From an uncultured archaeon (GTDB lineage: Archaea > Thermoproteota > Bathyarchaeia > Bathyarchaeales > Bathycorpusculaceae), in contig CAWALK010000024.1 of the NCBI GenBank assembly GCA_963782915.1, positions 32,001 to 96,000 of the forward strand: a DNA stretch of 64,000 nt, in the 5' to 3' direction. The position numbers and the translations under genes are program-made. The notes below the pieces were generated by a model. The model worked only from the letters and a program-made list of their open reading frames with translations. It did no database searches and was not told the origin of the DNA. Of the stretch, positions 6,460-28,003 are shown piece after piece (the first letter of the stretch is position 1; each line of letters opens with the position of its first letter).

Positions 6460-7495
6460 TCAGCTTTTCTCTATTCGATAGAGGTTGTTTACCTTTTCGA
6501 TGGTGAATTGGGCGTTTAACATTTTTTCCATGAGCCAAATGTTGGATTCTATGTGTTCAGAGATGGCTCGGGTGAGGAACGCGGATTTGCCCGTCGGCTA
6601 GTGCCATGTAGGGTATGAGCATGTCGGCGAGGTATTCATCCACCGTTGGTTTGGCGGATAGTTCGGTTATGAGGGTTTGGGCGGCTTGTTTGCCGACGTC
6701 TTCTGCCATTTTGCGGAGTTCACCGATGGAGTCGGCGCCAACGATTACGCCTGTGTCAGTTTCAGCCCACAATACGATGGAGCTGCCTTTCTGGATGGGG
6801 TTTGATTGGTCGTTTACGATTTGGATGTCTGCTTTGTAGCCATTTTGACCCAGAACGTTTTGGGCGCCTTTGGCTTGACGTTCAGCCACTTGCCTATCAG
6901 CCAAAAATGTGCAAACCGAGGCGCCCTTTATGGATTTGAGGGTGCCAAACTTTTCGAGCGCAAACGGTTTCATGTTGGGGTTTGGCTTCACAGTTAAGGT
7001 TGCTTCGCCCATGCCTTTGGGATAGTAACCGTATTTTTGAACGGTGATTTCCGCTGCAACGCCCATCTTGCTAAGAGTTGGCAGGAGCACGTTTCGCAGG
7101 TAGTTGATGGTTGGCGCGTGGGTGGTGTCTGTTCCGCCTTTTGCCACATGGACCTTCACTGGGGTTTGGGCGAATAGGCAGATGGGCAGTGTAGATAGGA
7201 ACAGCATTGGGATGCTTCCAGCTGTTTCAATAACAGCCTCTACATTGCCGCCTTTAATCTCACGGGGTGTAACCCAGAGTTCCCTTGAACCCAGCGATGC
7301 CCCTTTTACTTCTGCATTGCAGAGTTTAGCGGCTGTCAACACTGATTCGAGGTGCTGATGCTTCAACCCTGGCTGCGGGCGGTTCTGGCGAATGTTAGTG
7401 ATGTGCAGAGGCTGCCCTTTGATGGCGGCTATTGCTATGGATAAGCGCAGTATGGTGCCGCTTCCGCTTTTTTGGCTCCCATCAATCTCGATCAT
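6460..7495 (-). CDS. rtcA: RNA 3'-terminal phosphate cyclase (C-terminal indel)
   Basis: MIEIDGS..GSGTILR, RPQPGLKHQHL, GYYPKGMGE and VDEYLADML motifs. Confidence 0.93.
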
Positions 7496-7621
7496 ATGGT
7501 TTCTTCTATAGCGGGACTGGCTAAAATATAGAATAGTTACTAGATCAATGGTACTGCCCAAAGTGGAGGACTCTTGGTGTCAATCATACGGTTGCTTAAG
7601 TCTTAAATATAGCTAATTCAG

Positions 7622-7750
7622 ATATGGTTGTGGGGTGAAGAGCGCCTGTGATGCATGCCTTTGCGTCTCAACATTGGAGAAAGTGTTGAGTACTCGCATG
7701 CTTGAGTAGGAACAGTCTCACCCTTTAGCTTCTCCGACATGCAGCCATAT
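7622..7750 (+). ncRNA. Candidate structured RNA (multi-stem, possible pseudoknot)
   Basis: Six nested stems plus loop-to-downstream complementarity found by eye; G-U pairs favour the + strand. Confidence 0.45.
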
Positions 7751-7853
7751 CCACAACCAGCCCACAACCCAAACCAGACGCTGAACCCAAACCAAAATTG
7801 CCAACTCAATCGATTGGTTGTTGTTGTGTATAGGGGCTTTTCGCCAACAACAC
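7751..7853 (+). repeat. Dispersed repeat module A (C/A-rich block + GTTG..CAAC hairpin)
   Basis: ccacaaccagcccacaacccaaaccagacgc closely matches 39534-39570; hairpin loop contains tatagggg. Confidence 0.8.
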
Positions 7854-8002
7854 ACTGATAAAAAACAATTCACCTCCCACAAAATTATGCTATCAAGCGG
7901 CAAGCGTGCACCTAAAACATTCTTCGCCTAACAAACGCCCACCCCATCAGTTAACACCACAATGAATGCAGCCCTTAAACGTCGTAAACTATGCAGACGT
8001 TG

Positions 8003-8043
8003 AGCCTATAAATAAGGGAGGGGGTAGGTCGGCAGAGCAATAG
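8003..8043 (+). repeat. Dispersed repeat module B (G-string motif)
   Basis: tataaataagggagggggtaggtcggcagagcaa; near-identical core at 49512-49545. Confidence 0.8.
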
Positions 8044-8150
8044 TACCTAACACAAACAACCAATAAACACTGCTACAGAACATTTGGCTAAAAGCTGCAA
8101 ATAATTTATTAAGCGTCCGAGATTACTTAGCAGTTTAAGAGGGAGCCAAA

Positions 8151-8606
8151 GTGAGCAGTGACAAAGAAAAACTCAATCAACTTCTAGCTAAAGTCGAAGA
8201 AATCAATGCTACAATGAACAAGATGTCTGAGGAGTTGCGTTCGGTTTCTGCTTCTCTTAAGTCACTTGCTGTTGGGCAAATTACTCAGCCACCAACCGTC
8301 CATGTTACGGCTTCACCAAAGCCTGCCTCTGCACCCATCCATACACCCTCGCCACCTGCAGTTACGGCTCCAGCATCTGAGGGTTCAAAATTGAGGTCAC
8401 TAGATGACATCCGCATGTCGTTCCCAGAAGAACTCGAAGCACGCCTCAGCTTCGAAGAAAAAGGCGAATACATCATAATCAAACCCAAACAGTTCTTAGG
8501 CTCAGATAACTTCGCCAAAATCGCTGCAGCTTCACGGGGAATGGGCGGAGAATACATCAGTTTGGGCAAAGACTCGCATTTCAGGATACCCAAAAAGAAA
8601 GCCTAA
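8151..8606 (+). CDS. Hypothetical protein (coiled coil, Pro-rich linker, globular C-domain)
   Basis: 151 aa ORF with GGGAG RBS-like sequence and upstream TATA-like tttattaa. Confidence 0.75.
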   Translation: MSSDKEKLNQLLAKVEEINATMNKMSEELRSVSASLKSLAVGQITQPPTVHVTASPKPASAPIHTPSPPAVTAPASEGSKLRSLDDIRMSFPEELEARLSFEEKGEYIIIKPKQFLGSDNFAKIAAASRGMGGEYISLGKDSHFRIPKKKA

Positions 8607-9469: not shown

Positions 9470-9489
9470 TCCGTTTATCTGAAGCTATT

Positions 9490-9961
9490 TTAATACATAC
9501 GTTTGGGCTTGATGTTTTCTCCAACGGACAAAAGAAAAAGCGCTGCCGTGGTTGGACCTATGCGTTCGAAGCAGTCGGCTAATGCTTTGGTGACTTTGGC
9601 ATAGTTGTCGGATTTGTCCAAGCTGTCTAGGTAGGCTTGGAAGGAGCCATATTGGCGCCTTATTTGCTGGAATTTCTTTGCGTTCTCGATTATGGCATGG
9701 ATTTTGTATTTGTTGCGGATTATACCCTTGTCGTTTAAGAGCTGTTTTACGTCGGTCGTCATTGAAGGCGGCTATGCGGTCAACGTTAAAGCCCAAGAAA
9801 GCTGTCTTTATAGTTGGCCATTTCTTTTCAACAACACTCCAATTTAAGCCAGTCTGGAAAATAATTCGGCACAAATTCTCAAAATATAAATCATCACTAG
9901 ACGGCCGCCTGTCACAATACCACCATGCAGGGTAATGCTCAGTTTGGTTCTGCCCCGACAT
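9490..9961 (-). CDS. DNA-3-methyladenine glycosylase I family protein (indel)
   Basis: FQTGLNW..V.KK, IIRNKYKI.A.IENA and F..IGPTT motifs in two frames. Confidence 0.85.
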
Positions 9962-9977: not shown

Positions 9978-10457
9978 TCAGTGCCCCCACACATCGATGT
10001 CTTCACCCACAGTATAGAGAAAAGTGCTCGCCGAAGGTGGCCCCAACCATTTAAAATTGTTAACAAGCGTCTTCACAGCTTTCGCATAATTGTCTGATTT
10101 GTCGATGCTGTCGAGGTATTTTTGGAATGAACCGTACTGTTTTTCGATGGCTGTGAAGGTTTGGGCGTTACGGATTATCGCTTTGATTTTGCCTCTGTTT
10201 CGGATTATGCCGCTGTCTTTCAGTAGGCATTCTACGTCTTCATCAGTGAAGCAAGCGACTTTTTGAATATCAAAATTTAGGAAGGCTTCTTTTATGGTGG
10301 ACCATTTCTTGTCAACTACTTGCCAGTTTAAGCCCGCTTGAAAAATTACTCGGCACATATTCTCAAAATACGCCGCATCGTTTGCGGGCCGTTTATTTCT
10401 GTACCACCAATCAGGCGGCTGCCAACTTTCATGTTCCTGCTGCATAGACGTTGCCAT
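9978..10457 (-). CDS. DNA-3-methyladenine glycosylase I family protein (paralogue)
   Basis: FQAGLNW, IIRNRGKI.A.I.NA and FKWLGP motifs. Confidence 0.88.
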   Translation of the reverse strand: MATSMQQEHESWQPPDWWYRNKRPANDAAYFENMCRVIFQAGLNWQVVDKKWSTIKEAFLNFDIQKVACFTDEDVECLLKDSGIIRNRGKIKAIIRNAQTFTAIEKQYGSFQKYLDSIDKSDNYAKAVKTLVNNFKWLGPPSASTFLYTVGEDIDVWGH

Positions 10458-27866: not shown

Positions 27867-27914
27867 ACAAGAAACGCCCAGAAAGTTAATTAATCCATAA
27901 ACCCCCAAAAAGTT

Positions 27915-27979
27915 GGCTATGGCATTAGCCGTGGCAGTCGCCAGAACCGCAACCAAAACTGGATGCTGATAATGCCTAC
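27915..27979 (+). promoter_or_regulatory. Fluoride riboswitch (crcB motif)
   Basis: GGCTATGGCATTAGCC...AACCGC...GCTGATAATGCCTAC; GGCATT/AATGCC pseudoknot; directly upstream of crcB. Confidence 0.88.
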
Positions 27980-28003
27980 CAATTAGAATGGATGGTAGAT
28001 GGT

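Follow-up and report, generated by a model that had tools for sequence, protein, structure and literature searches.

The window (the whole 64,000-nt stretch analyzed here, from an uncultured archaeon of the Bathyarchaeia) carries genes for RtcA and a Trm5/TYW2-type methyltransferase to the left of a candidate RNA, as the original prediction had described. The RNA had been drawn at 7622-7750 as a cloverleaf-like structure with a pseudoknot, downstream of a TATA-like sequence, which was located as TTAAATAT at 7603-7610. Our analysis placed a non-coding RNA gene with its own promoter at 7633-7727 of the plus strand, and its predicted transcript is a member of a previously undescribed family. The elements of the gene, as aligned with those of other members, are the following:

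7603-7610, plus strand: TATA box TTAAATAT, promoter of the sRNA gene; the box aligns in nine orthologues
7633-7727, plus strand: predicted sRNA transcript of ~95 nt, for which the distance to the TATA box suggests the 5' end and the T-rich tail suggests the 3' end
7633-7639, plus strand: 5' strand of the terminal helix P2, GGGUGAA, pairing with 7717-7723; A7639 faces C7717 in the window copy
7639-7644, plus strand: 5' side of internal loop IL1, AGAGCG (R-GAGNG in the family); in 82 sequences, the G, A, G and G show little or no variation
7645-7651, plus strand: 5' strand of helix P3, CCUGU and then GA, opposite GUAGG (7706-7710) and GA (7704-7705)
7653-7658, plus strand: 5' strand of P4, GCAUGC, pairing with 7696-7701; a family-wide covarying stem
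7667-7674 and 7683-7690, plus strand: apical hairpin P5 with the purine-rich loop UGGAGAAA (7675-7682), the middle hairpin of the original prediction
7696-7701, plus strand: 3' strand of P4, GCAUGC, pairing with 7653-7658
7704-7710, plus strand: 3' core GAGUAGG, in which GA faces GA and GUAGG pairs with CCUGU
7711-7717, plus strand: 3' side of IL1, AACAGUC, conserved in the main clade; it includes the ACAG of the P3 first proposed
7717-7723, plus strand: 3' strand of P2, CUCACCC, pairing with 7633-7639
7724-7735, plus strand: T-rich 3' tail UUUAGCUUCUCC, the likely termination zone

The RNA gene and its surroundings

In every copy of the family, a TATA box preceded the first paired base by about 27 nt, and the gene ended in a T-rich tail. 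In the 103 distinct members, positions -28 to -25, counted from the start of P2, were 93-98% A/T, and the starts of TATA-like hexamers peaked at -32 to -27. Archaeal TATA boxes are centred ~26-27 nt upstream of the start site, so transcription was predicted from this distance to start at the first paired bases, at ~7632-7634. T made up 45-65% at most of the first ~11 positions 3' of P2 and ~30% further on, and TTT was found no more than 9 nt past P2 in 68/103 members. Measured between the outer ends of the terminal helix, the RNA was 77-124 nt long, with a median of 91.

Both versions of the RNA folded better than shuffled sequences. The 129-nt stretch 7622-7750 reached -46.5 kcal/mol (z = -2.70, 3/200 shuffles as good), with z = -1.16 for its opposite strand, and the refined RNA 7633-7727 reached -35.9 kcal/mol (z = -3.73, 0/200 shuffles as good). 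The opposite strand of the refined RNA also folded well (z = -3.10, 2/200 shuffles as good). The assignment to the plus strand was made from the promoter, the G-U pairs and the strand-specific scores of the family model. G-U and U-G dominated two positions of P3 (84/103 and 91/103, respectively), which supports the plus strand since the opposite strand would carry mismatches there. The reverse complement of a 58.5-bit hit scored 5.7 bits with the family model, and 7633-7727 itself scored 89.5 bits (E 1.4e-19).

Rfam 15 gave no match to the RNA at gathering score when the whole window was scanned, and no credible match at E up to 10 in 7450-8200; no recurrent Rfam family appeared among 20 other members. 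With this result, the conservation in relatives and the gene's own promoter, the proposal of a novel structured non-coding RNA held. The reading of the element as a cis-regulatory leader (a riboswitch) or a small-protein gene has hardly any chance of being right. Its 5' end resembles a Shine-Dalgarno sequence (GGUGAGGAG) and is followed by a conserved GUG, as would suit either version. Against a leader, no downstream gene was conserved; the genes downstream of the copies were unrelated and often convergent, and the T-rich tail came directly after P2. Against a coding sequence, the GUG open reading frame reached the 3' module in 49/103 members, compared with 41/103 for a control frame, and orthologues differed by 1-nt indels that break the frame.

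Several other elements were observed in the window. Two further Rfam matches at gathering score lay away from the RNA locus, namely a fluoride riboswitch (crcB motif) at 27906-27985 on the plus strand, with 39.4 bits against a gathering score of 34, and a tRNA-Val. A dispersed repeat of ~120-130 nt occupied 7750-7868, starting directly after the outermost helix of the original prediction. It had 74 BLAST hits at E<=1e-6 in the same genome, 39 of them at least 95 nt long, and other copies reached ~20 nt further 5' than the window copy. Its consensus contained the inverted repeats CCACAACCAGCC ... TGGTTGTTGTTGTG, followed by a GTTGTTG...CAACAAC hairpin and AGAAAAA. The repeat could represent a MITE or a further RNA family. 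A second dispersed repeat of ~50 nt at 7989-8048 contained CCTATAAATAAGGGAGGGGG and had dozens of copies in the genome, which were often separated by 100-250 nt from one of the first repeat; it may serve as a shared promoter or leader module. Downstream of the repeats lay an open reading frame of 151 aa (8151-8606, plus strand) with no Pfam match. Two adjacent paralogous genes on the minus strand (9485-9961 and 9978-10457) resemble DNA-3-methyladenine glycosylase I, judging by eye. The former appears to be split over two overlapping frames (9485-9961 and 9490-9762) and may be frameshifted.

Distribution and genomic context of the family

A BLAST search of the same genome with 7560-7830 found one partial paralogue of the 5' part. 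When 61 related genomes were searched with 7590-7752, homologues were detected in eight genomes of a single genus, the source genome included. Two conserved modules emerged, GGUGARGAGYGCCUGUGA and (Y)GAGUAGGAACAGWCUCACC, which were 60-110 nt apart and flanked unrelated sequence. A motif scan of the source genome revealed four copies, each of which contained the two modules and had a TATA box 5' of them. Fourteen sequences went into a covariance model whose only structure was the terminal helix. This model gave 119 matches in 62/120 genomes of the genus, with 1-15 in each matching genome and four in the source genome; matches were present in 41/73 of the high-quality genomes. In a sample of 151 genomes from 79 genera of the class, strong matches were confined to the same genus, and the model gave no credible match in the other genera. 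Two weak matches outside the genus (E 0.002-0.004) were treated as false: one lay inside an apparent open reading frame and had no TATA box, and the other lacked the 3' module.

A wider search with the exact composite pattern, covering one genome per species in 185,579 species, matched 57 stretches. These were labelled as generic archaea or as MAGs of Bathyarchaeia or Bathyarchaeota, with three Candidatus Bathycorpusculum species among the latter, except for one match labelled as a Methanocella sp. MAG. The proteins flanking the Methanocella-labelled match clustered with those of Bathyarchaeota loci, and its contig was probably mis-binned. As far as was searched, the family is confined to one genus of Bathyarchaeia. 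Tandem arrays of 2-4 units were seen, each unit with its own TATA box. On the minus strands of two loci, L054 (560-1136) and L055 (584-1075), arrays of 3-4 members with different apical domains were spaced ~140-175 nt apart.

More divergent candidates for hairpin sRNAs, each with its own TATA box, were observed in L055 (minus strand, ~1100-1700) and in the source genome (C1:70920, minus strand). They had the same GGGUGAGG...CCUCACC terminal stem as the family with different cores, and the C1:70920 candidate carried the CCUCUCUUCCU loop of the commonest subfamily. Since these divergent relatives share the terminal stem but have other cores, a larger group probably exists, of which the family is the part that can be detected. 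The motif strings appeared only in papers that are unrelated, judging by titles and the opening parts of abstracts, and papers naming the genus had no RNA topic in the title or the start of the abstract. Paralogous families of stand-alone sRNAs are already known as a kind; the scaffold, the restriction to one genus of Bathyarchaeia and the tandem arrays are new.

The neighbours of the copies varied. The two nearest open reading frames at 57 other copies encoded 94 proteins of 75 Pfam families, the commonest being the tRNA-splicing endonuclease (4), a hydrogenase small-subunit family (4) and Trm1 (2). Clustering showed that recurrent neighbours reflected synteny within subfamilies, that is, single events, and no neighbouring protein was conserved across 40 loci or across the 57 loci. 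The closest orthologue of the window copy was located between a tyrosine integrase and an N6/N4 DNA methylase. In the viral collection, one match only was found, by the exact pattern (L127, 5748-5838). This member was observed between genes of tailed viruses (tail tube, HK97 gp10-like) and host-type genes (transglutaminase-like, TBP), and the site may be a provirus border.

Such surroundings bring up an RNA of mobile elements or genetic conflict, which would be carried by integrative elements or proviruses, serve as their integration site, or form a diversifying repertoire for defence or counter-defence. The copy number of 0-15 per genome, the tandem arrays of 2-4 units, the integrase and methylase beside the closest orthologue and the viral-collection match at the edge of a tail-gene block that adjoins host-type genes such as TBP are consistent with this reading. 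It is nevertheless given only a slim chance: the genome carrying the integrase neighbour showed no partial copy of the RNA that resembles an att site, most copies lay among housekeeping genes with subfamily-specific synteny across species, and the single match in the viral collection was to the exact pattern only.

Structure of the scaffold

The comparison of members revealed the conserved scaffold GGUGA-R-GAGNG-CCUGUGA ... AGUAGG-AACAGN-Y-UCACC, which enclosed a covarying stem and a hypervariable apical domain. The architecture predicted from these sequences is one long irregular hairpin, a rod with no cloverleaf, in which the terminal helix P2 is followed by the internal loop IL1, the irregular helix P3, the covarying P4 and the apical domain. 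The consensus of P2 was N-GGUGA-R with Y-UCACC-N, and its closing pair was GC in 48, UA in 27 and AU in 9 of 103 members. About 30 positions of the scaffold were invariant or nearly so in 82-103 sequences, including the helix bases GGUGA/UCACC and CCUGUGA/AGUAGG. P4 formed a contiguous helix with a mean of 6.0 pairs within a sequence and 3.6 between sequences, and five of its seven pairs changed on both sides, in an imperfect alignment.

The irregular helix CCUGUGA/(R)AGUAGG consisted of C-G, C-G, U-A, G-U and U-G pairs, after which came G-A and A-G. The P3 of the original prediction (7646-49/7712-15, 4 bp) pairs CUGU with ACAG instead; these pairs were present and 91.7% paired in the orthologues, but CCUGU/GUAGG fits better and the strand was probably mis-paired. 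In the 103 members, 97.7% of the CCUGU/GUAGG cells were paired, with 31 changes that kept the pairing, 12 unpaired cells and no gap cells, whereas CUGU/ACAG was 94.6% paired, with 24 one-sided pair-keeping changes, 21 unpaired cells and 20 gap cells. In divergent members, the wobbles of CCUGU/GUAGG turned into Watson-Crick pairs (G-U into A-U in six or G-C in four; U-G into C-G in six or U-A in six). The ACAG segment was missing from seven divergent members that kept the GUAGG-type strand, and the minimum-free-energy fold of 7633-7727 paired CCUGU with the GUAGG region and not CUGU with ACAG. Because of the higher pairing, the changes from wobble to Watson-Crick pairs, the loss of ACAG and this fold, CCUGU/GUAGG followed by G-A and A-G was preferred as the better fit. 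The changes in both registers were one-sided only, with no double compensatory change in either. The two registers are mutually exclusive, and the RNA could conceivably alternate between them.

The known motifs compared with the core by eye, namely the kink-turn, the S-turn (loop E) and the bulge-helix-bulge, did not fit the CCUGU/GUAGG register. Tandem G7650-A7705 and A7651-G7704 pairs would be possible, as in a kink-turn, but no bulge adjoined them in this register, and in the CUGU/ACAG register the bulge would be 6-7 nt.

A small, highly conserved internal loop between variable helices might also be the active site of a new class of catalytic RNA, self-cleaving or other. The multiple copies with tandem arrays and the lack of a match to any known class would suit such an RNA, but no ribozyme model of Rfam matched at E up to 10 in the window region or the 20 other members scanned, and the CAG-N part of the loop was deleted in the seven divergent members, which were otherwise intact. 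This makes catalysis very unlikely.

All pairings of the original prediction could be traced in the window sequence at their positions, including the outer helix P1 (7622-31/7741-50, 10 bp with two G-U pairs), the three hairpins (7650-55/7662-67, 7668-75/7682-89 and 7691-95/7704-08) and the complementarity of GGAGAA (7676-81) to UUCUCC (7730-35) that would form the pseudoknot. Comparison with relatives bore out conservation of the RNA and covariation of P2 and P4, but not all of the elements. In an alignment of the window copy and eight orthologues, where slid controls paired in 32-50% of cells, P2 (7633-38/7718-23, 6 bp) was 100% paired in the nine sequences, and the middle hairpin was 88.9% paired. 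Hairpin 7650-55/7662-67 was intermediate: it was 67.3% paired, but clashed with the family-wide P4. P1 (50.6% paired), the pseudoknot (35.2%) and hairpin 7691-95/7704-08 (43.2%) were at or near the level of the slid controls; UUCUCC was found 3' of the RNA in only one of the nine sequences, and the last hairpin clashed with the family helices. The flank helix of the window copy, with 12 contiguous pairs, was the longest of the 103 members, but the family mean (5.83) was level with that of a between-sequence control (5.66). The tRNA-like four-way junction was likewise not retained, as its hairpins clashed with the covarying P4 and P3 and the minimum-free-energy fold was one long hairpin. Because pairing in the orthologues resembled that of the controls and the TATA box predicts a transcription start downstream of the 5' strand of P1, the cloverleaf, P1 and the pseudoknot are, as judged from the alignment, features of the window sequence alone. 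The single-sequence fold thus had the core stem right and its surroundings wrong; the cloverleaf, the pseudoknot and the link to RNA repair vanished on comparison.

This link had been drawn from the genes beside the window copy, which is divergent from rtcA and near trm5, and from an analogy with pseudoknotted, tRNA-like RNAs of the Y/YrlA type. The pairing of the 5' and 3' ends around a variable interior recalls Y RNAs, and the tRNA-splicing endonuclease (four loci) and Trm1 (two) among the 94 neighbours would agree with a role in RNA repair tied to RtcA. However, P1, the pseudoknot and the junction were not conserved, and the endonuclease neighbours belonged to one syntenic subfamily and count as one event. 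Homologues of RtcA and Trm5 were found only in the window's own loci among 184 loci, the regions of other members included. TROVE/Ro60 (PF05731) had no match in the source genome, which is 93.5% complete, while positive controls were hit in two control genomes, and neither ARAGORN nor Rfam detected a tRNA, tRNA-like gene or tRNA-like element at the RNA locus. The Y/YrlA reading is largely refuted.

Apical loops and possible functions

The apical domain was wholly different between paralogues and conserved across species within a subfamily. In the window-type subfamily, P5 was 91.7% paired across nine orthologues, and all nine members had the loop G[G/A]AGAAAGUG. The commonest subfamily contained 35/103 members with the loop CUCUCCCUU or CUCU(C/U)UUCC, which was carried on 20 different P4 arms. 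The other loop types were the window type (nine members) and two CA-rich types (six each), and 47/103 members were in no subfamily. Because the loops were kept across species while the stems varied, they appear to act by their sequence. The C/U-rich loop CUCUCCCUU may be likened to the anti-Shine-Dalgarno end of the organism's 16S rRNA.

The window copy is one of four paralogous stand-alone sRNA genes in its genome, and the family may well consist of sRNAs that act in trans, sharing a scaffold but differing in their targeting loops, a function to which we assign somewhat less than an even chance. The invariant scaffold would give stability, bind a common protein, or both, and the apical loops would be specificity elements that base-pair with targets, so that the family would work like the 'sibling' families of trans-acting sRNAs in bacteria, for example LhrC1-5 and Qrr. 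The similarities to these families include paralogues that are in part tandem, individual promoters, a shared fold and exposed C/U-rich loops that could bind ribosome-binding sites. The differences are that the RNAs described here are archaeal and unrelated in sequence, that their invariant scaffold is much larger and that their loops differ between paralogues. The search for antisense targets in the source genome gave only matches of 13-14 nt, which is the chance level. Complementarity of 103 interiors to the organism's own 16S, 23S, 5S and tRNAs, measured as the longest Watson-Crick matches with G-U excluded and with targets from one genome, showed no excess over shuffled, reversed and sense controls.

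Some results count against trans-acting sRNAs. The scaffold, and not the loops, is the most invariant part, which a protein-binding or decoy RNA would fit equally; the 47/103 members fall outside the loop subfamilies; the P3 changes are one-sided, with CUGU/ACAG 94.6% paired; and the reverse strand of 7633-7727 also folds well (z = -3.10). The main rival is a protein-binding scaffold or decoy, with the invariant internal loop and the G-U/G-A helix as the binding site of an RNA-binding protein, either dedicated or general, such as a ribosomal, L7Ae-type or Sm-like one. In this case, the apical domain would be a tolerated spacer or secondary platform, and the RNA would sequester or assemble the protein as Y, 6S or vault RNAs do. 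Tandem G-A pairs beside a helix are a common protein-binding feature and are possible in the core. The ~30 invariant or nearly invariant scaffold positions, some of them inside helices, the unrelated apical domains of paralogues and the lack of a base-pairing target in the searches of the source genome, rRNA and tRNA also point this way. On the other hand, the conservation of loops across species in the subfamilies while the adjacent stems vary is unexpected of a spacer, the supported register has no 3-nt bulge beside the G-A pairs and would not form a standard kink-turn, and the copies had neither a conserved neighbouring protein gene nor a TROVE gene in the genome. A scaffold or decoy role of this kind is judged unlikely, though it is the strongest of the rivals.

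Comparison with the known RNAs of similar form revealed likenesses and clear differences. Like Y RNA and YrlA, the members are stand-alone RNAs of ~100 nt with a conserved end stem, a variable interior and several paralogues per genome. Unlike them, they have no Ro60/TROVE gene, tRNA-like domain, match to the Rfam Y_RNA model or linkage to rtc, and the conserved sequence is unrelated. With the archaeal box C/D and H/ACA sRNAs, they share multiple copies, a conserved core with variable segments, G-A pairs and some clustering, and the core of those RNAs binds proteins. Box C/D RNAs are defined by a C box (RUGAUGA) near the 5' end and a D box (CUGA) near the 3' end. The family has no such boxes: its consensus reads CCUGUGA and AGUAGGAACAG, and the 3' stem strand is not preceded by CUGA. 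It also differs from box H/ACA RNAs in that no ACA box adjoins the 3' end of its basal stem; P2 was followed by A in 35, U in 29, C in 17 and G in 1 of 82 sequences, and the trailers varied. The members are longer than the guides of both classes and rod-like, with no excess complementarity to rRNA or tRNA and no snoRNA-type Rfam match on the plus strand. The helix with G-U, U-G and G-A pairs and its AGUAGG/UGUGA-type sequence bear some likeness to the loop E regions of 5S rRNA. The three 5S genes of the source genome differ in sequence and have a three-arm fold, the 5S model RF00001 misses the family, and the register supported by covariation is not that of the S-turn.

A broader proposal is a new class of archaeal ribonucleoprotein RNA, in which a dedicated protein would recognize the rod scaffold and the apical module, as an interchangeable part, would guide the complex to different targets, either RNA or DNA. 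This is improbable at present. If it were true, the family would represent a guide-type system beside box C/D, H/ACA and CRISPR RNAs, and the tandem arrays and the 0-15 copies per genome would be signs of rapid diversification, perhaps during conflicts with mobile elements.

Bathyarchaeia are abundant and uncultured, and to our knowledge almost nothing is known of their regulatory RNAs. The family provides a well-defined RNA with more than 100 natural variants, a promoter, a terminator, a secondary structure open to testing and subfamilies whose loops are conserved. This suffices for the design of probing, pull-down and target-search experiments and of an Rfam model for annotation.
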